The translations under genes and the position numbers were made by a program. A model generated the notes under the pieces. That model was not told the origin of the DNA. It worked only from the letters and a program-made list of their open reading frames with translations, and searched no databases. This document shows positions 1-6,099 of a stretch of DNA of 6,099 nt, piece by piece (positions within the stretch are counted from its first letter, which is position 1; each line of letters begins with the position of its first letter). This DNA comes from a virus. Location: the IMG/VR virus record IMGVR_UViG_3300002170_000109, positions 1 to 6,099 of that record; one strand, given 5' to 3'.

Positions 1-93
1 ATATAACAGCTAGTTTAGCAGCTTCTTTTATCTTTTCAATGATTAAAAAATATATCAAAAAATAAGATTAAAACCTCTTTTTCAATATATTAT
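1..93. repeat. Terminal redundancy, copy 1 (identical to 6007-6099); circularisation overlap
   Basis: Base-by-base comparison shows position n equals position n+6006 across all 93 nt. The copy contains the 3' end of the 31-aa ORF (stop TAA at 63-65) and the left arm of the 64-126 hairpin. Confidence 0.97.
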
Positions 94-126
94 TACGAAT
101 AAATATATTGAAGAGGTTTTAATCTT
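64..126 (+). terminator. Long imperfect hairpin (~29 bp stem, loop ACG) followed by a T-rich tract. It may be an intrinsic terminator after the 31-aa ORF and/or an ssDNA structural element.
   Basis: AAGATTAAAACCTCTT (64-79) is the exact reverse complement of AAGAGGTTTTAATCTT (111-126). The inner segment CAATATAT (83-90) pairs with ATATATTG (103-110), with a further 4 bp around loop 95-97. The inner GAGG stem is followed by TTTTAATCTTT. Confidence 0.5.
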
Positions 127-153
127 TAATAAAAAATATAAAGGAGCGTCAAG

Positions 154-441
154 ATGAATACAGATGTAATTATCTTAGGAGCACGTCCGTATGACTTTGA
201 AGATAATCAAACTAAGAAACAGGTGTCTGGTGTTTCTGTCTGGGTTCTACCAAAAGAAACTGATGATTCGAATGTAAACGGATTGCTACCAGTTAAGTAT
301 ACGTTAGATAAGGAGCAGTACAAAGAGATTGCGCAAATCCCATTGCCAGCTCAAGCTGAATTGCTACTTAGCTATAATATCACAAGTAAACGAGTAAAAT
401 TTAAAGCATTTCAAAATATTGAGCCGATTGAGCTGGCCTAA
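154..441 (+). CDS. 95-aa small soluble protein, putative ssDNA-binding protein (gVp-like)
   Basis: Strong SD AAAGGAG lies 7-8 nt upstream of ATG 154. The protein has no TM segment. Its size and its position upstream of the coat genes match inovirus gene V. The segment LPVKYTLDKEQ resembles PVLVKITLDEGQ of Ff gVp as I recall that sequence. Confidence 0.5.
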   Translation: MNTDVIILGARPYDFEDNQTKKQVSGVSVWVLPKETDDSNVNGLLPVKYTLDKEQYKEIAQIPLPAQAELLLSYNITSKRVKFKAFQNIEPIELA

Positions 442-521
442 TATCAATCCGTAGTGACGAAGATTTACTTGAAAATCGTCGGAACGAGGATTCCTCTTGA
501 CGTAGTCAAGATAAAAAAAGA

Positions 522-1010
522 ATGAATATGGAAGAAAAAACTAATACAGTAGACTTATCACAAATTCAAGAAAAAATTGATTCTCAAAATAAAATTCTCG
601 AGACCATTCGAGATGAAATTCAAAAAGCTAACGAACGAGAAAATAATGAATTAGCTGATAAAAAGAAACAAAAAGAGGAAGCAGATAAAAAAGAACAAGA
701 GCGGATTAAAAATGGTGAGTTAACAACTGAAGAGCAAATTTTGAAAGAACTTCAATCCATTTCATCATCTACCTCAAATCAAAATGAAACACTAAATCAG
801 TTTGTTGATGATCTTATGAAAAAAGTTGAATCTGGTAATACATCATCATCAGAAGCTAGTGAGCAGTTAAAAACATTGGTCGAAATTAATCAAAATTCAT
901 CTCATTTTTCCGAAACGCAGACCAATTTACTTGCCACGTATGCTATTGTTATCATTCCTGTTTTTGTAGTGTTAGTTTTAATCTATAGGTTTTTCCGACA
1001 GTTTATTTAA
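522..1010 (+). CDS. 162-aa tail-anchored membrane protein with a charged coiled-coil N-terminal region; function unknown (candidate minor virion or assembly protein)
   Basis: The open frame starts at ATG 522 (a second ATG is at 528) and the SD is weak. The N-terminal ~130 aa are rich in K/E/Q/S with heptad-like character. A single C-terminal TM segment (LLATYAIVIIPVFVVLVLIY) is followed by the basic tail RFFRQFI. The gene sits immediately upstream of the major coat gene, where Ff carries gVII/gIX. Confidence 0.55.
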   Translation: MNMEEKTNTVDLSQIQEKIDSQNKILETIRDEIQKANERENNELADKKKQKEEADKKEQERIKNGELTTEEQILKELQSISSSTSNQNETLNQFVDDLMKKVESGNTSSSEASEQLKTLVEINQNSSHFSETQTNLLATYAIVIIPVFVVLVLIYRFFRQFI

Positions 1011-1062
1011 TTTTATGGTTGGTAGTGGGTGGGAAAATAAGCTAAAAAGGGGGGAATTGCTA

Positions 1063-1203
1063 ATGATTTCAGCAGAAGCGGTTCAAGGTGTTGTTTCTTC
1101 AATCACAAGCGAAATCTCAACAGCTGCGCCTGCAGGTATGACCATTCTTGGTGGTATTCTTGGCGTTAAAGTTGTTGTTCGTTTGATTAAGAGCTTCATT
1201 TAA
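1063..1203 (+). CDS. 46-aa major coat protein (pVIII-like, Pf3-type with no signal peptide). The ORF track extends to ATG 1015, but 1063 is the better-supported start.
   Basis: SD AAAAAGGGGGG (1045-1054) lies 8 nt before ATG 1063, whereas ATG 1015 has no SD. The product is MISAEAVQGVVSSITSEISTAAPAGMTILGGILGVKVVVRLIKSFI. It has an acidic/polar N-terminus, a Gly/Ala-rich hydrophobic core and a basic C-terminus (K, R, K), which is the canonical inovirus coat architecture. A strong terminator follows immediately. Confidence 0.7.
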   Translation: MISAEAVQGVVSSITSEISTAAPAGMTILGGILGVKVVVRLIKSFI

Positions 1204-1209
1204 CTAATT

Positions 1210-1237
1210 AAAGATGCTTCGGCATCTTTATTTTTTT
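1210..1237 (+). terminator. Rho-independent terminator directly after the coat gene
   Basis: Stem AAAGATGC (1210-1217), loop TTCG, stem GCATCTTT (1222-1229), then A plus T7 (1230-1237). The next gene starts 11 nt later at 1248, so its expression would need read-through. Confidence 0.85.
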
Positions 1238-1247
1238 AGGGTGAATT

Positions 1248-2960
1248 ATGAAAAAAATATTTGCGAAGTTAAAAATTATTTTGATGATTTTTTTGGTTTT
1301 ATTTACATTTTTCCATAAACCTAAGCCTGCTAAGGCAGATGCTTTAGTAGCGGGTGGAGGAATGTATTTGATTTCGTTAAATCCTGCCATTTTGCCGATT
1401 GCAGTTATTGGCTTGATTGCTTGTTTGTTAGTTGGTTTTACTATTTCTAATTGGGATGAAGTAACAGCTTTTGGTAATGCAGTAAATCAAGAATTACTGG
1501 CTTTAGGTGGTTCTATTGGTGATTATGTTCACGGTACCAGTGTCAAAATTGATTCAACATTAAAACAGGCTATTTTTAACGCTTATGGAAAAACAGGAAA
1601 AACATTACCTAAATATACAAAAACGGTAGATTATAGCGGTGGAACAGTTGTTCATACAGGATTAATCAATGGAGCTGATATTTATGGTGCTACTGACATA
1701 TTGGATTATCTAAACACAGATTTTAGGTGTTTTGGTAATGTAGTAAACGGTGTTGGTGATAAAAGTAATCTTTATATAAAAAGCGGACAATCAGAAAAGG
1801 TTGGTACTATTTATTATTTGGATTCTATCACTGTTACTGTTACTGTTTTACCTACCAGTGCAGAACTTGCCTTTTTTGATTTAACTGGTTTTTCTTCAAC
1901 AGATTTAAAACGAGATAGTTCAGGAAAAGTGATAGAAGCTAGTTCAACATTATCTGCAAAGACTTTAGAGAGCTTCTTGGGAAGTAGTGTTGAATTACCT
2001 TACTCACTTGGAATGGCTTCAACAGCACCCGTTACAATTACAGATGTTACAATTCCAGAATTAGGGATTGGTAGTAATGTAAGTAGTGTTTCTACTTCCA
2101 CGTTAAAAAGTACAGCAATCAAAAAAGAGAGAGTTAATGAATATATGGATACAGCATTTCCTACAAGTACTTCTGTCAAGTTTAAAGAAGATACCGATGT
2201 GCGAGGAATTACTATATCAGATTTAGCAAATGTTTCAAATGGTAGCATTACTAATGAGCAAGCTAAAGCATTAGACGACATTCAGGCAAATGCTGTTTCT
2301 GAAAATACTGGTTCTTCTTCGTCCGCAGGATCTTCAAGTGGTTTTTGGTCGTTGTTATGGGATTGGCTATTAAAAATTTTAAATGCTATTTTGGGTATTC
2401 CCTCAGCAATTTTAGACGTTATTAAAGTACTATTTGCGACTGTTACAGATTGGCTTGCCAAAATTTGGCAGGGAATTTGTGACTTGAATATTGGTTCTAC
2501 AATCGTTGATTGGTTATCAAAACTTTGGACGGGTATTTGTAGTATTCCTAGTGCTATTGTTGCAGGAGTTACGGGCTTTTGGGAAAAGTTACTTGAGTTT
2601 GTTGAATCAATTGTTAAAGCAATTGACGGCTTTAATCAAGCAATCGCAAATGCAATCACTGGTGCTTTAGAATGGTGTTTTGGACTTGATGAAACTTGGT
2701 TAAGAGGTCGTATCGAGTCACTTAAAAAAACTTTTGATTCAAAATTTCCAGCTTTAAAACCTATTAATTATAAATTTAGTGATAAAGGTAGTTTTGATGA
2801 TTTAACAATGACTGTTCCTTATTGCGGTCAAGTGACTGTGGTTGAATCAGCGATAGTGATGAAGTATGGTTCAGTACTTAAAAATTTCTTGAGAGCATTT
2901 TTCTATTTAATTACAGCACTATTTTTCTTTAAGAGATTTCACAAGGTGGCAGAGGATTAA
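1248..2960 (+). CDS. 570-aa pIII-like minor coat / host-adsorption protein
   Basis: It is the largest ORF and lies right after the major coat gene. The N-terminus looks like a signal peptide (MKKIFAKLKIILMIFLVLFTFF...AKADA), followed by a second hydrophobic segment at aa 38-67. A Ser/Thr-rich central region is followed by a Gly/Ser linker NTGSSSSAGSSSG (nt 2307-2342). Trp-rich ~20-aa repeats span nt 2343-2657. The C-terminal hydrophobic anchor is FLRAFFYLITALFFFKRF. This layout parallels Ff pIII: receptor domains, a G/S linker and a C-terminal membrane or virion anchor. Confidence 0.6.
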   Translation: MKKIFAKLKIILMIFLVLFTFFHKPKPAKADALVAGGGMYLISLNPAILPIAVIGLIACLLVGFTISNWDEVTAFGNAVNQELLALGGSIGDYVHGTSVKIDSTLKQAIFNAYGKTGKTLPKYTKTVDYSGGTVVHTGLINGADIYGATDILDYLNTDFRCFGNVVNGVGDKSNLYIKSGQSEKVGTIYYLDSITVTVTVLPTSAELAFFDLTGFSSTDLKRDSSGKVIEASSTLSAKTLESFLGSSVELPYSLGMASTAPVTITDVTIPELGIGSNVSSVSTSTLKSTAIKKERVNEYMDTAFPTSTSVKFKEDTDVRGITISDLANVSNGSITNEQAKALDDIQANAVSENTGSSSSAGSSSGFWSLLWDWLLKILNAILGIPSAILDVIKVLFATVTDWLAKIWQGICDLNIGSTIVDWLSKLWTGICSIPSAIVAGVTGFWEKLLEFVESIVKAIDGFNQAIANAITGALEWCFGLDETWLRGRIESLKKTFDSKFPALKPINYKFSDKGSFDDLTMTVPYCGQVTVVESAIVMKYGSVLKNFLRAFFYLITALFFFKRFHKVAED

Positions 2961-2962
2961 AG

Positions 2963-3214
2963 ATGATACAAGGTATTTTAAATGTTTTTTTCAATGTCTG
3001 CGAATGGTTTCTTGGACTGTTTCCGACAATCACAATTTTTAGTGATATTTCCGAAAGTGTAGCTGGCATATATAGTTATCTTTATGCCGTTTCAGCTATC
3101 GTCCCTGTTTCAGATTTTTTTATCTGTATTGGTTTGATTAGTGGGTTCTATGTAAGTTTATTTTTAATAAAATTATCAAATTGGATTTTGCATAGAATAC
3201 CGATTTTGAATTAG
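2963..3214 (+). CDS. 83-aa polytopic hydrophobic protein, pVI-like minor coat protein
   Basis: SD AGAGGA lies 6 nt before ATG 2963, which is 2 nt after the stop of the preceding gene, suggesting translational coupling. There are about three hydrophobic segments. The position between the pIII-like and pI-like genes matches gVI. Confidence 0.5.
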   Translation: MIQGILNVFFNVCEWFLGLFPTITIFSDISESVAGIYSYLYAVSAIVPVSDFFICIGLISGFYVSLFLIKLSNWILHRIPILN

Positions 3215-3223
3215 AAAGTGAAT

Positions 3224-3272
3224 AAAAAAAGACGTAAACAGTGCTTGCTGTGCAAGCCTGTTACGGCTTTTT
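3224..3272 (+). terminator. Intrinsic terminator-like hairpin between the pVI-like and ATPase genes
   Basis: An A7 run (3224-3230) precedes the structure. The outer stem CGTAAACAG (3233-3241) pairs with CTGTTACG (3258-3265), with one bulged A. The inner stem GCTTGC (3243-3248) pairs with GCAAGC (3252-3257). The sequence GC plus T5 (3266-3272) follows. Confidence 0.65.
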
Positions 3273-3284
3273 ATGAGGGTTATA

Positions 3285-3992
3285 ATGAAAAAAGGTAAAC
3301 TTGCAAATCGATTTGAAGATTTATCAAATAAACCATTTATTTTAAAATTTATCTATTTTTTTAGTAGTCTGTTTTATGATTTCGCTTATCGCTTTAAAAA
3401 TAAAAATGATTTTAAAGAATTTGGGTTAACTTTATACTGCGGTCGTCAAGGTGCAGGAAAAACAATGGCTATGACAGAATATTTGGAGCGTATGCGAAAA
3501 AAATATCCAAATTGTATTATTTGTACGAATTACGGATATTCCCACGAAAATTTTCCGATGACGGATTGGAAGCAAATTTTCGAGGTTAGAAATGGTGAAA
3601 AGGGTGTGATTTTCGCTATCGATGAAATTCAAAATGAATTTAATTCGTCTGCTTGGAAATCTTTTCCAGAGGGACTTTTGGCAGAAGTTACACAACAGCG
3701 AAAGCAAAAAATTAAAATTGTTGGGACATCTCAAGTATTTACTCGTGTGGTTAAACAATTACGAGAACAGACTTTCGAAGTAGTTGATTGCAAAACGTTA
3801 TTAGGTCGATGGACTTTTGAGAGAGCATTTGACGCAGAAGAATATAATGCTGTTGCTGATAGGCCAGAGGCAAAAATGAAATTACATAGATTATGGCGTA
3901 AAAATTTTGTCCAGTCAAAACGGTTACGTAATTTGTACGATAGTTATGCTAAAATCGAAAAAATGTCTCGTGAAGTTCTAGAAAATAATTGA
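3285..3992 (+). CDS. Zot/pI-like P-loop NTPase (filamentous-phage assembly ATPase). The maximal ORF starts at 3273.
   Basis: Walker A is GRQGAGKT (nt 3441-3464) and Walker B is VIFAIDE (nt 3606-3626). The SD GAGGG lies 5 nt before ATG 3285. An N-terminal hydrophobic stretch PFILKFIYFFSSLFYDFAY precedes the ATPase core. The position after the pVI-like gene matches gI/zot in inoviruses. Confidence 0.7.
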   Translation: MKKGKLANRFEDLSNKPFILKFIYFFSSLFYDFAYRFKNKNDFKEFGLTLYCGRQGAGKTMAMTEYLERMRKKYPNCIICTNYGYSHENFPMTDWKQIFEVRNGEKGVIFAIDEIQNEFNSSAWKSFPEGLLAEVTQQRKQKIKIVGTSQVFTRVVKQLREQTFEVVDCKTLLGRWTFERAFDAEEYNAVADRPEAKMKLHRLWRKNFVQSKRLRNLYDSYAKIEKMSREVLENN

Positions 3993-4017
3993 ATATCGCT
4001 TCCAAAAGTGGTACACT
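3989..4017 (+). promoter_or_regulatory. Candidate sigma-A promoter for the RHH gene, with extended -10
   Basis: The -35 is TTGAAT (3989-3994), followed by a 17-nt spacer ending in TGG, then the -10 TACACT (4012-4017). An inverted repeat AAAAGTG-gta-CACTTTT (4004-4020) overlaps the -10. Confidence 0.4.
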
Positions 4018-4042
4018 TTTCTGTAGATAGAAAGGAGCTTTT

Positions 4043-4225
4043 ATGGTAGTATCTGTAGATTCAAAAAGATTTCAAGTTACACTTCGTAAGAAAACTTTTG
4101 AAAAATTAGAGCAGTGTTCTGATTGGAAATCAATGTCTAAATCACATATTATCGAAGCTGCTTTAATTGACTATCTCGATAAGAACGGGTTCTATGATGA
4201 TGAGGAACGTTTGTTAATTTTGTAA
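4043..4225 (+). CDS. 60-aa ribbon-helix-helix (CopG/Arc/MetJ-type) transcriptional regulator
   Basis: SD AAAGGAG lies 5 nt before ATG 4043. The pattern is RHH-like: a beta strand (KRFQVTLRK), helix A (KTFEKLEQ) and helix B (SKSHIIEAALIDYL). The small size is typical of phage or plasmid repressors. Confidence 0.7.
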   Translation: MVVSVDSKRFQVTLRKKTFEKLEQCSDWKSMSKSHIIEAALIDYLDKNGFYDDEERLLIL

Positions 4226-4247
4226 ATAATTTTTAGGCAAAAAAATA

Positions 4248-4282
4248 AGCCAGTTGGGGAACTGGCTAGGGTGTTGTTTTTT
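4248..4282 (+). terminator. Hairpin with a downstream T-tract after the RHH gene (non-canonical spacing)
   Basis: Stem AGCCAGTT (4248-4255), loop GGGG, stem AACTGGCT (4260-4267). T6 lies at 4277-4282, which is 9 nt after the stem. An A-run (4239-4245) upstream could extend the pairing. Confidence 0.45.
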
Positions 4283-4317
4283 CTTCTTTCAACTAATTAT
4301 AACACACCTGCAAACTT

Positions 4318-5358
4318 TTGCCAATTTTGCTATACAGAAAGTGGTGTGTTTTTTTGGTTGTAGAAAAACGTGAACGTATTAGTTGGAAAAGTAAAAAATT
4401 TGGAAAGATTGTTAATGAGTTCGATTTTTTAACCGCCCTATCTAATAGGCGGTTAGATTCCCAAAGTTTGGGAAAACGGGTGAGTTTACATTGGAGTATT
4501 GACCGAATTACGCTTGTTGGTGAAATTAAATATTTTACTGATTTTGATGTAGATGGTTCTGAAATTATTCGTGGCTTTGATGATGTTTTTGAGAAACTTT
4601 GTCAAAAAGGTCATGCTGAAGAAGTCGGCAATGGTTGGGCTATTAAGGACAAGTATAATGAAAATATAGCCTATGCTGAAATTTTAAAATATGATGAAAA
4701 TAAAGCTCGTATCGATTTCAATCCGAACCGATTAGGAAATTTTTTAGAAGATGACTTGAAAGCATTCTTTAAAAAACTATTGATTAATCCGCATTTCTCA
4801 CGTGCTGACGTAGCTTGTGATTTGATTAATATTCCTGACGAGGCAATTACTCAGTATACAATTGTAGCTCCAGTGAAATCTGTGCTTTATCATGATAAAG
4901 TGGGTAAACTGGAAACTGCTTATTGGGGTAGTCGTTCTAGTGAACGTCAAGTGCGTCTTTATAATAAGTATGTTGAACAAACTCGAAAAGGTCAAATCAT
5001 TCAAAAAGAAATTGAGTCTTGGTGGCGTTTGGAAATGCAATTGCGCCGTGATAAGGCAAGCAATTGGATCAACATTGTTCGGGAAACTTTATCGGAGTTT
5101 AAATCACCACTGTTTTTTCCAACAGACATGAAAGTAACAGATAAAATTATGCTTACAGGTCTTTTAAGTGATGAAAGTCTGTGGGCGGAGTTATCAAAAA
5201 ATAGTCGTACTAAATATAAAAAGTTATTGAATGAGTTAACTCAAGATGATGAATTAACTCTTGCACTTGTTGAATCGTTTTCAGATTGTTACCTAGACTT
5301 AAAAAATGAACTTGATACGTGGTTAATAGGTTTAGATGTAACGTCTAGCGATGTATAA
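4318..5358 (+). CDS. rep: Rolling-circle replication initiator, Rep_trans (pT181 RepC/RepD-like) family. The 5' end is uncertain because there is no in-frame ATG before codon 240.
   Basis: Conserved blocks are typical of the Rep_trans family: HWSIDRITLVG near the N-terminus, RADVACD (nt 4801-4821), YWGSRSSERQVRLYNKY (nt 4921-4971) and WWRLEMQLRRDKA. The maximal ORF begins at TTG 4318. Alternative starts are TTG 4354, TTG 4468 and GTG 4480. None has a convincing SD. Confidence 0.8.
   Translation: MPILLYRKWCVFLVVEKRERISWKSKKFGKIVNEFDFLTALSNRRLDSQSLGKRVSLHWSIDRITLVGEIKYFTDFDVDGSEIIRGFDDVFEKLCQKGHAEEVGNGWAIKDKYNENIAYAEILKYDENKARIDFNPNRLGNFLEDDLKAFFKKLLINPHFSRADVACDLINIPDEAITQYTIVAPVKSVLYHDKVGKLETAYWGSRSSERQVRLYNKYVEQTRKGQIIQKEIESWWRLEMQLRRDKASNWINIVRETLSEFKSPLFFPTDMKVTDKIMLTGLLSDESLWAELSKNSRTKYKKLLNELTQDDELTLALVESFSDCYLDLKNELDTWLIGLDVTSSDV
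4430..4455 (+). promoter_or_regulatory. Putative plus-strand (double-strand) origin nick hairpin, pT181-like
   Basis: The sequence is AACCGCCCTATCTAATAGGCGGTT (4431-4454). Stem AACCGCC pairs with GGCGGTT, TAT pairs with ATA, and the loop is CTA. From memory, the pT181 IR-II nick region is AACCGGCTACTCT/AATAGCCGGTT. That gives 19 of 24 positions identical, including TCTAATAG, and one stem base pair is swapped compensatorily (G-C to C-G). Confidence 0.6.
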
Positions 5359-5399
5359 CAAATGTATATCAAAGTAAAACAATTGTGTAGGTGAGTGTA

Positions 5400-5759
5400 T
5401 TGGCAAATATAAAAGGTTATCAGATTAATATACGTGTTTCTGTACAAGAAAAAGAAGCACTTGATAAAGAAGCAGAAAAACAAGGTTTAAAGCGTTCGGA
5501 ATACATACGCACTAAGCTCTTTTCAAAATCTGCTACAGAAAGTGTACAAAACGATATACAAACGTATACAGATAATATTGAGAAGCTTTTTGAGATGAAT
5601 CAGCAATTAATCAAGAATGATAAAATCAAAAGTGAAACAATTAATAATTTGACTAAGCTTTTTAGCGAAGAACAAAAGAAAACTCTTGCATTAACACAAG
5701 AACTTGATTTTGAAAAAAATAAAAATATTTGGCAAAGGATATTTAAAATAAAAAAATAA
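5400..5759 (+). CDS. ~119-aa protein with an N-terminal ribbon-helix-helix (MobC/CopG-like) domain and a C-terminal coiled coil; putative DNA-binding regulator or replication accessory protein. The maximal ORF starts at GTG 5391.
   Basis: SD AGGTGA (5389-5394) lies 5 nt before TTG 5400. The RHH signature is YQINIRVSVQEKEALDKEAEKQGLKRSEYIRTKL. The C-terminal half is K/E/Q/N-rich and helical. Confidence 0.6.
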   Translation: MANIKGYQINIRVSVQEKEALDKEAEKQGLKRSEYIRTKLFSKSATESVQNDIQTYTDNIEKLFEMNQQLIKNDKIKSETINNLTKLFSEEQKKTLALTQELDFEKNKNIWQRIFKIKK

Positions 5760-5777
5760 AATGCATACATGTTCTGT

Positions 5778-5831
5778 TATATGAATAAAAGGGTCTAGTG
5801 CTTTTAAGCACTAGACCCTTTTATTCATATA
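5778..5831. terminator. Perfect 26-bp-arm inverted repeat (2-nt centre). Likely a bidirectional intrinsic terminator for the rep-RHH unit, and a candidate ssDNA hairpin (packaging signal or minus-strand origin).
   Basis: TATATGAATAAAAGGGTCTAGTGCTT (5778-5803) is the exact reverse complement of AAGCACTAGACCCTTTTATTCATATA (5806-5831). The GC-rich core GGGTCTAGTGC/GCACTAGACCC is followed by TTTTATT. Confidence 0.7.
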
Positions 5832-5853
5832 CATTAGGAGATAAAGCTAGCCA

Positions 5854-5881
5854 TTGCTATAGTATATATATTATCTATTAT
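5854..5881 (+). promoter_or_regulatory. Candidate promoter for the structural-gene transcript
   Basis: The -35 is TTGCTA (5854-5859), followed by a 16-nt spacer and the -10 TATTAT (5876-5881). The 22-bp palindrome lies immediately downstream, in an operator-like position. The context is AT-rich, so a chance match is possible. Confidence 0.3.
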
Positions 5882-5907
5882 CTAGTATCTAGTATATATA
5901 CTAGATA
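5860..5907. repeat. Iteron-like cluster: three direct TATCTA heptamer-spaced repeats, one inverted copy, a 22-bp perfect palindrome and an 11-mer direct repeat
   Basis: TATCTA occurs at 5872, 5879 and 5886 (period 7), and its complement TAGATA at 5902-5907. TATCTAGTATATATACTAGATA (5886-5907) is its own reverse complement. TAGTATATATA occurs at 5860-5870 and 5890-5900. Confidence 0.85.
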
Positions 5908-5975
5908 ACTCCTTTTAACCCTTGGAACGATATTATCAATATAAAAAAAATATAAAAAAGAAAGGAGATCTAAAA

Positions 5976-6071
5976 ATGTTATTAAACATTTTAGATTATT
6001 TGAGAGATATAACAGCTAGTTTAGCAGCTTCTTTTATCTTTTCAATGATTAAAAAATATATCAAAAAATAA
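5976..6071 (+). CDS. 31-aa hydrophobic peptide with a basic C-terminus (candidate pVII/pIX-like minor coat protein or small membrane peptide)
   Basis: SD AAAGGAG (5961-5967) lies 8 nt before ATG 5976. The product is MLLNILDYLRDITASLAASFIFSMIKKYIKK and the stop is TAA at 6069-6071 (equivalent to 63-65). The 64-126 hairpin follows. The ORF is missing from the supplied track only because it is short and spans the circular junction. Confidence 0.5.
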   Translation: MLLNILDYLRDITASLAASFIFSMIKKYIKK

Positions 6072-6099
6072 GATTAAAACCTCTTTTTCAATATATTAT
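6007..6099. repeat. Terminal redundancy, copy 2 (identical to 1-93)
   Basis: Exact 93-nt match to the window start. Confidence 0.97.

Follow-up and report, generated by a model that had tools for sequence, protein, structure and literature searches.

A small uncultivated inovirus-like phage very probably replicates by rolling circle from a pT181-like nick hairpin inside rep

Introduction

Plasmids of the pT181 family carry their double-strand origin inside the rep gene, a hallmark that sets them apart from other rolling-circle plasmids (PMC5703833). In these origins, the repeat IR-II (or ICRII) is followed by IR-III (or ICRIII), a plasmid-specific Rep binding repeat centred 23 base pairs (bp) downstream of the nick (PMC4797284; PMC1851628). 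On the protein side, a six-residue C-terminal element is the determinant of origin specificity in this family (literature cited in PMC5703833 and PMC9371924). In this work we analyzed 6,099 nucleotides (nt) of DNA, positions 1 to 6,099 of the IMG/VR virus record IMGVR_UViG_3300002170_000109 and hereafter called the window, which contain an inovirus-like element with a rep gene related to that of pT181. A first reading made from the letters alone, here called the sequence-only reading, had proposed a pT181-type nick hairpin at the start of this gene. We consider it highly probable that the hairpin at 4431-4454 serves as the IR-II equivalent, i.e., the nick site, of a pT181-family double-strand origin, which would be the plus-strand origin of this 6.0-kb circular element. 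Built like the pT181 origin and located within the phage's own initiator gene, it is very probably where this small filamentous phage, known from uncultivated material, starts its rolling-circle replication.

Rep_trans proteins are the commonest rolling-circle endonucleases among filamentous phages (PMC13595969), and exchange of replication modules between filamentous phages or inoviruses and plasmids has been documented (PMC13595969, PMC6813254). Hence, the tie between a filamentous phage and a pT181-type initiator, as drawn in the sequence-only reading, is real but was to be expected, and it is not new. In CTXphi, the classic example and a filamentous phage of a Gram-negative host, rolling-circle replication also starts with a PF02486 initiator, RstA, that nicks a hairpin loop (PMC4439123; PMC4797284). 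The CTXphi ori(+), however, is a complex region of 167 bp with several stem-loops that needs HU and is nicked between G and T (PMC4439123), whereas the window origin looks like the compact pT181 type and is located inside rep. At Rep_trans and MOBT origins, a G/C-rich hairpin carries the nic sequence CT'AA in its loop (PMC9371924). This includes the origins of transfer (oriT) of ICESt3, Tn916 and ICEBs1, which are processed by a distantly related enzyme of the Rep_trans fold (PMC9371924). MOBT relaxases nevertheless differ from the window Rep in that they serve conjugation and have other binding sites and domain layouts, whereas the window Rep features a RepC/RepD-type C-terminal domain and a contiguous putative binding site.

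Results

We read the pT181 IR-II straight from NC_001393, where it is found as AACCGGCTACTCTAATAGCCGGTT at 4357-4380 and, with its flanks, as AAAACCGGCTACTCTAATAGCCGGTTGG at 4355-4382. The pT181 nick sequence given in the sequence-only reading was correct. The window site is identical to the pT181 24-mer at 19 of 24 positions and has the same loop core, CTAATAG. The mismatches at positions 6 and 19 belong to a single base pair, which is C:G in the window and G:C in pT181; both the degree of identity and the compensatory pair had been claimed before, and both were borne out by this alignment. Within the window, no other site comes closer to the 24-mer than 16/24, and the top match in 200 sequences simulated with a first-order Markov model was 17/24.

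The stem AACCGCC/GGCGGTT can be extended to positions 4430-4455, with perfect 8-nt arms (TAACCGCC at 4430-4437 and GGCGGTTA at 4448-4455) and 10 nt in between; the loop region CTATCTAATA contains TCT/AATAG. When folded as single-stranded DNA, positions 4420-4465 form 8 bp, a bulged C4438 and three further bp. This fold reaches -8 kcal/mol compared with a mean of -2.64 for shuffled sequences (z = -3.55), and none of 200 dinucleotide shuffles folded as well, so that the proposed hairpin is real. From the CT'AA nic site of Rep_trans origins (PMC9371924), Rep would be predicted to cut between T4443 and A4444. The hairpin occupies 78-101 nt from the probable rep start, and the pT181 IR-II lies 69-92 nt into repC, which upholds the claim that both origins sit in the 5' part of the initiator gene. 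The pT181 position also agrees with the one published for the origin of a pT181-like plasmid of equal size (PMC6395029).

Because it is a stable stem-loop of the transcribed strand and lies close to the 5' end of rep, the hairpin might also act at the RNA level, as a transcription attenuator or translational regulator in the rep mRNA. Attenuation does control Rep synthesis in pT181. Here, however, no T run follows the stem, a terminator scan does not flag the hairpin, and a scan of Rfam returned no family matching the hairpin, nor one matching the countertranscript candidate described below. Sequence conservation is highest in the loop, where the motif TCTAA.AG is invariant in 22 distinct origins, and this fits a nuclease recognition site better than an RNA conserved for its stem only. 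Candidates for regulatory elements are found upstream instead, at 4238-4324. We consider an RNA-level role of the hairpin extremely unlikely.

Returning to the hairpin as a nick site, we found a second inverted repeat that was absent from the sequence-only reading. The palindrome TTCCCAAAGTTTGGGAA starts three bases past the hairpin, and its centre G4466 is 23.0 nt from the predicted nick at T4443. We sought the best inverted repeat downstream of the hairpin in each of 27 distinct origins. The distance between its centre and the nick T came to exactly 23.0 nt for the window, for pT181, for a pC221-like plasmid and for most enterococcal and streptococcal relatives. The origins of pT181 and pC221 thus resemble the window in the IR-II match and loop core, in an inverted repeat that directly follows at the same distance from the nick, and in a location roughly 70-100 nt inside the rep frame, in the same reading frame. 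The comparison with these plasmid origins that had been suggested earlier hence supports the proposed origin type. The palindrome itself varies by lineage, e.g., TGCACAAACTATGTGCA, TGTACATAATATGTACA or GTGTAAAAAATGTTTACAC, and that of pT181, GCACATACTGTGTGC, is unrelated to the one in the window. Such variation is to be expected of a specificity determinant.

Furthermore, the palindrome changes across relatives together with a six-residue element of Rep, a correlation only. In the window this element reads SKNSRT and aligns with residues 265-270 of RepC (HRNSRT). SKNS(R/K)T is present in all four phage lineages that share a TCCCAAA(G/A)TTTGGGA palindrome. On the basis of this correlation, we match SKNSRT to the palindrome at 4458-4474 as a putative specificity pair.

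The protein encoded around the hairpin scored 33.7 bits against Pfam Rep_trans PF02486 (cut-off 29.6). For the comparison, RepC was rebuilt over the zero point of the circular pT181 entry. In BLASTP, the two proteins are 28% identical over 300 residues (E = 5e-24), which is nearly full length. This alignment begins exactly at the hairpin-encoded peptide, TALSNRRLD in the window and TGYSNSRLD in RepC, so that the two elements share the frame in which the hairpin is read. Among PDB sequences, the staphylococcal replication initiation proteins 4CWE and 4CWC were matched with E of about 1e-19 (4CWE, E = 8e-20). The gene had been claimed to encode a pT181-type initiator, and the Rep_trans match and the homology to RepC confirm this assignment. 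Counterparts of the catalytic tyrosine and of the C-terminal specificity element of RepC and RepD are in place along the roughly 300 homologous residues. Tyr203 (Y215 by ORF, i.e., open reading frame, numbering) in RLYNK aligns with RepC Tyr191 in RIYNK and is invariant in an alignment of 12 homologues. Rep thus appears to keep a single tyrosine in an R-x-Y-N-K context, with a predicted catalytic role.

Gene callers place the start of homologues with 90-94% identity at the codon equivalent to TTG 4354 (MTVEKRER.../LTVEKRER...), and residues encoded upstream of the hairpin (NEFDxL) are conserved among homologues. We also considered a rep start downstream of the hairpin, at TTG 4468 or GTG 4480. 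We rejected it because the upstream frame is open and conserved and because both the gene callers and RefSeq set the start upstream.

A hairpin inside an ORF can be a mere by-product of coding. In all low-GC relatives, (L)(T/A)A(L/P)SNRRL is encoded across the hairpin, and it might hence reflect selection on the TALSNRRL peptide, or be the relic of an origin, with the working origin located elsewhere, for example among the strong hairpins of the AT-rich non-coding region 5760-6006. Synonymous sites tell the two kinds of constraint apart. In 21 distinct relatives, the Ser codon of SNRRL is always TCT (21/21), and its Arg codons are AGG (20/21) and CGG (21/21). In contrast, the equally conserved and invariant WSIDRIT, 13 codons downstream, is encoded in the same 21 relatives with six different Ser, three Arg and four Thr codons. 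AGG and CGG are, moreover, minority Arg codons of the genome (7/62 and 5/62). The origin-encoded peptide has been reported to be dispensable for replication in the pT181 family (PMC5703833), and the large hairpin at 5778-5831 in the non-coding region is not conserved in relatives.

High-GC relatives provide a further argument. Three IMG/VR contigs, L045-L047, share the nick loop of the window, which they present on a perfect stem of 13 bp, CGTTCACCGCCTA-ATCTAA-TAGGCGGTGAACG (L045 2849-2880), but just upstream of and outside the rep frame, and their Rep is 24% identical to that of the window. The hairpin is therefore kept there without a coding role, and it is conserved far beyond recognisable DNA similarity. 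Taken with these contigs, the chance that the window hairpin is a coding by-product or a relic, with the working origin elsewhere, seems very slim to us. L045-L047 were found by scanning IMG/VR with a DNA pattern for the hairpin; they are viral contigs of 5.3-6.0 kb with the same gene order as the window lineages.

Compensatory changes in the stem fit the reading as an origin as well. In the 6.1-kb relatives, an A:T pair has become G:C, by ACC to GCC (Thr to Ala) in the left arm and by the synonymous TTA to CTA (Leu) in the right arm. The G:C form of another stem pair is found in pT181 and in a Liquorilactobacillus plasmid. In L040, from a 5.4-kb phage lineage, the hairpin AACCGCCTACTCTAATAGGCGGTT (2964-2990) matches the pT181 IR-II at 22/24 positions with the swapped C:G/G:C pair as the sole difference, and it folds into a perfect 9-bp stem around CTCTAA, the same 6-nt loop. 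Over the alignment, 83.8% of the stem cells were paired compared with 15-52% in slid controls. The sequence-only reading had asked whether relatives keep the loop and co-vary the stem; both loop and stem are kept, with some compensatory changes. The synonymous contrast, the compensatory changes and L045-L047 argue that selection acts on the hairpin as DNA and not just on the peptide.

Rep homologues with 90-94% identity are encoded on circularly permuted 6.1-kb metagenomic contigs, and those with 56-67% identity on three more sets of circles of 5.3-5.4 kb, all with the same gene order. Four phage lineages of common gene order thus share this origin. Outside phages, the nearest Reps, 50-55% identical with more than 90% of the length aligned, are those of small cryptic rolling-circle plasmids of Enterococcus faecium, Streptococcus suis, S. 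agalactiae and Tetragenococcus, annotated as 'replication initiation factor domain-containing protein'. As in the window, the rep gene of these plasmids contains the hairpin that encodes LTALSNRRL, and the distance to the palindrome is the same. They differ in their size of 1.9-5 kb, in having no morphogenesis genes, and in their palindromes and specificity peptides. In a quick neighbour-joining tree, rooted with RepC and without support values, the phage Reps form one separate clade, sister to the Enterococcus/Streptococcus plasmid Reps. Staphylococcal Reps are only 28-31% identical to the window Rep. The sequence-only reading had called origin and initiator a staphylococcal-plasmid-type pair; this holds for the pT181 architecture, but the closest Reps belong to plasmids of Enterococcus, Streptococcus and Tetragenococcus.

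A Rep with 51% identity and the same hairpin also occur at 8001-10439 of L043, a 224-kb chromosomal contig, beside a DUF3173 gene and a tyrosine integrase. The Rep/origin module is therefore present in integrated islands, too.

This locus is one of several observations that would suit a role of the site as oriT, with the Rep_trans protein acting mainly as a MOBT-type relaxase and the element being a mobilisable plasmid rather than a phage that replicates from this site. The MOBT relaxases of ICESt3, Tn916 and ICEBs1 share the CT'AA nic in a G/C-rich hairpin (PMC9371924), and a NikA-like gene follows rep at 5391-5759. The homology of Rep to RepC and RepD, however, spans the whole protein and takes in the C-terminal DNA-binding domain and the specificity element, and the putative binding site adjoins the predicted nick site, an arrangement known from pT181 origins (PMC1851628). 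The nearest non-phage relatives are the sole Rep genes of 2-5 kb plasmids, and the ORFs of the 6-kb circle include no other replication gene. Lastly, the 5.3-kb sister lineages retain the origin without the NikA-like gene. We thus regard a mainly conjugative role as very improbable, although oriT and replication functions are not mutually exclusive.

The features of the replication origin and of the surrounding element are listed in Table 1.

Table 1. Coordinates of the origin, the replication module and further genes in the window
Feature	Position	Strand	Basis
Probable major coat protein gene, 46 amino acids from an internal ATG	1063..1203	+	Pfam Inovirus Coat protein B 21.9 bits, below cut-off 23.5
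Zot/pI-like morphogenesis ATPase gene, inovirus hallmark	3273..3992	+	Pfam Zot 23.0 bits, cut-off 20.3; PHROG Zot-like match
Ribbon-helix-helix (CopG/Arc-like) gene, 60 amino acids, probable replication-module regulator	4043..4225	+	Pfam RHH_1 20.7 bits, cut-off 20.5; PHROG Arc-like repressor
Candidate countertranscript in rep leader, about 50 nt (4238-4289)	4238..4324	-	Promoter and terminator prediction
rep, Rep_trans/pT181-family initiator, 334 amino acids	4354..5358	+	Probable start TTG 4354; frame open from 4318
IR-II-type nick hairpin, probable double-strand (plus-strand) origin	4431..4454	+	AACCGCCCTATCTAATAGGCGGTT; pT181 IR-II match, fold, conservation
Predicted Rep nick, T4443/A4444	4443..4444	+	CT'AA, homology with Rep_trans/MOBT nic sequence
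IR-III-type palindrome, putative sequence-specific Rep binding site	4458..4474	.	TTCCCAAA-G-TTTGGGAA, perfect 8-bp arms
Predicted catalytic tyrosine codon, Tyr203 in RLYNK	4960..4962	+	Aligns with RepC Tyr191 (RIYNK)
Six-residue element SKNSRT, putative specificity element	5194..5211	+	Aligned with RepC 265-270 (HRNSRT)
NikA-like ribbon-helix-helix gene, 122 amino acids	5391..5759		Located after rep; Pfam PF21983, 38 bits

The window starts and ends with an exact direct repeat of 93 nt (1-93 and 6007-6099); it thus represents a molecule of 6006 bp that was assembled as a circle. K-mer overlaps of the same kind are seen in related contigs, whose true sizes are hence about 6111 bp and about 5290 bp. 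The + strand carries all substantial ORFs, and the GC skew is positive genome-wide. The Zot-like ORF carries the Walker A motif GRQGAGKT. The coat protein candidate has a hydrophobic core and a basic C-terminus, and a 46-residue gene was called at the same place in relatives. An ORF of 570 codons, followed by one of 83 codons, is located where adsorption and minor coat genes would be expected, and a 95-codon ORF follows rep. A small circle with its genes on a single strand, in the usual order of replication, single-stranded DNA-binding, coat, adsorption and assembly genes, is what characterizes filamentous phages, and we regard this element, which is known from metagenomic contigs, as an inovirus-like (Tubulavirales-type) phage, an assignment made from gene content and order. 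The NikA-like gene, which the 6.1-kb lineage has and the 5.3-5.4-kb sister lineages lack, is an accessory gene and the only hint of a link to mobilisation.

The source metagenomes include biogas fermenters. A whole-window search for near-identical DNA among deposited phages and plasmids gave no match, a tblastn search of 50,697 phage genomes found no hit to the window Rep at E<=1e-5, nor one to the L045 Rep, and a protein-pattern scan of IMG/VR revealed no relative. None of the isolate genomes, deposited phages and plasmids searched carries the element, and a scan of genome collections gave only small plasmid-like contigs. A low-GC Gram-positive bacterium is the likely host. We did not take hits labelled Dechloromonas, Desulfovibrio and Brevundimonas as pointing to a host: the contigs with a related Rep in these assemblies (L012, L024, L025 and L029) are 1.4-2.7 kb long, have about 1.5-2.7x coverage and are enterococcal-plasmid-like. 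They probably are contaminations of the Gram-negative assemblies.

Discussion

Some observations weaken the case for a plus-strand phage origin at this hairpin. Covariation in the stem is modest, with changes on both sides in two of nine stem pairs, and 17 of 500 shuffles reach the observed score. There is little covariation because the site is too conserved to vary, and we have therefore put more weight on the contrast at synonymous sites. Several plasmid relatives have an internal stem mismatch (AACAGCC/GGCGGTT) or a register shift. The Pfam matches of the morphogenesis genes are weak, with the coat protein below and Zot just above the cut-off, and the phage assignment therefore rests partly on gene order and sizes. 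We identified no minus-strand origin or packaging signal in the element. Finally, nicking, the covalent adduct and single-stranded DNA production by the element are presumed from analogy.

From the homology with pT181 and pC221, we propose the following mechanism. A Rep dimer would bind the palindrome with its C-terminal domain on supercoiled replicative-form DNA, and the adjacent hairpin would be extruded as a cruciform. Tyr203 would cut the + strand at TCT/AAT, and Rep would remain attached to the 5' phosphate. A host helicase of the PcrA type and DNA polymerase III would then extend the 3'-OH and displace the + strand. Once the fork is back at the origin, the regenerated hairpin would be cut and the displaced strand closed to a single-stranded circle. 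The nicked strand is the coding-sense strand, and the displaced strand of mRNA polarity would therefore be the packaged one, which is the convention in the Ff filamentous phages. We infer nicking at this particular bond, the use of PcrA, the identity of the packaged strand and the fate of Rep after each round from these plasmid models.

pT181 carries resistance and mobilisation genes, whereas the window has filamentous-phage morphogenesis genes, and pT181 has no ribbon-helix-helix gene before rep. In the window, such a gene is located directly upstream of rep, as in all four phage lineages. The rep leader in addition contains a near-consensus minus-strand promoter (4324-4296; TTGGCA, 17 nt, TG-TATAAT) with 11 of 12 promoter matches and a canonical minus-strand terminator, AGCCAGTT-CCCC-AACTGGCT followed by a T run (4267-4238). 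Two other phage lineages, L010 and L040, have both parts in the corresponding position, with other stem sequences. From its predicted parts, this arrangement of ribbon-helix-helix gene and candidate antisense RNA resembles the repressor-plus-countertranscript copy control of rolling-circle plasmids. We take the CopG/RNAII circuit of pMV158 to be its closest model.

We may thus speculate that an entire clade of uncultivated filamentous phages of low-GC Gram-positive bacteria is maintained and amplified exactly like a copy-controlled pT181-type plasmid, with a replication module that is ancestral to the clade and not a recent capture. This goes much further than the assignment of the origin, and we advance it tentatively, with doubts prevailing. 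It would cover at least four lineages of 5.3-6.1 kb as well as the high-GC IMG/VR sister group with the same nick hairpin. Its features may include a dimeric single-tyrosine Rep, maybe used once per round, the intragenic origin, and the ribbon-helix-helix repressor together with the countertranscript of about 50 nt. If this were true, such phages would be a natural test of how a 'single-use' plasmid initiator can support phage single-stranded DNA production.

Specific to the present case is the full pT181-type architecture, i.e., IR-II, a contiguous IR-III at 23 nt and an intragenic location, in uncultivated filamentous phages of the Gram-positive type, annotated at the level of single bases. 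This does not overturn current views. For phages of this type known only from metagenomes, it provides a base-precise candidate plus-strand origin in which the predicted nick, binding site, catalytic tyrosine and specificity element are named. The compact pT181 layout, with its 23-nt spacing and its position inside rep, hence reaches past staphylococcal plasmids to Lactobacillales plasmids, chromosomal islands and phages. A nick loop that is invariant, next to a palindrome and a matching Rep peptide that vary, could help to predict cross-reactivity or incompatibility between these phages and co-resident plasmids. The origin could also aid the construction of phagemid-like vectors for low-GC Gram-positive bacteria.

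Two further structures lie in the non-coding part of the circle. Right after the NikA-like ORF, positions 5778-5831 form a perfect 26-bp hairpin with a 2-nt gap, preceded by an A run and followed by a T run. We examined whether it could be a minus-strand origin or signal for packaging and rejected both, since it is terminator-like and relatives do not share it; it probably is a bidirectional terminator. Beyond it, a very AT-rich non-coding region (5832-6006 plus 1-153; about 25% GC) contains overlapping palindromes at 5878-5908 (TTATCTAGTATCTAGTATATATACTAGATAA) and gives no alignment with an 86%-identical relative. This region is a candidate place for a minus-strand origin or packaging signal.

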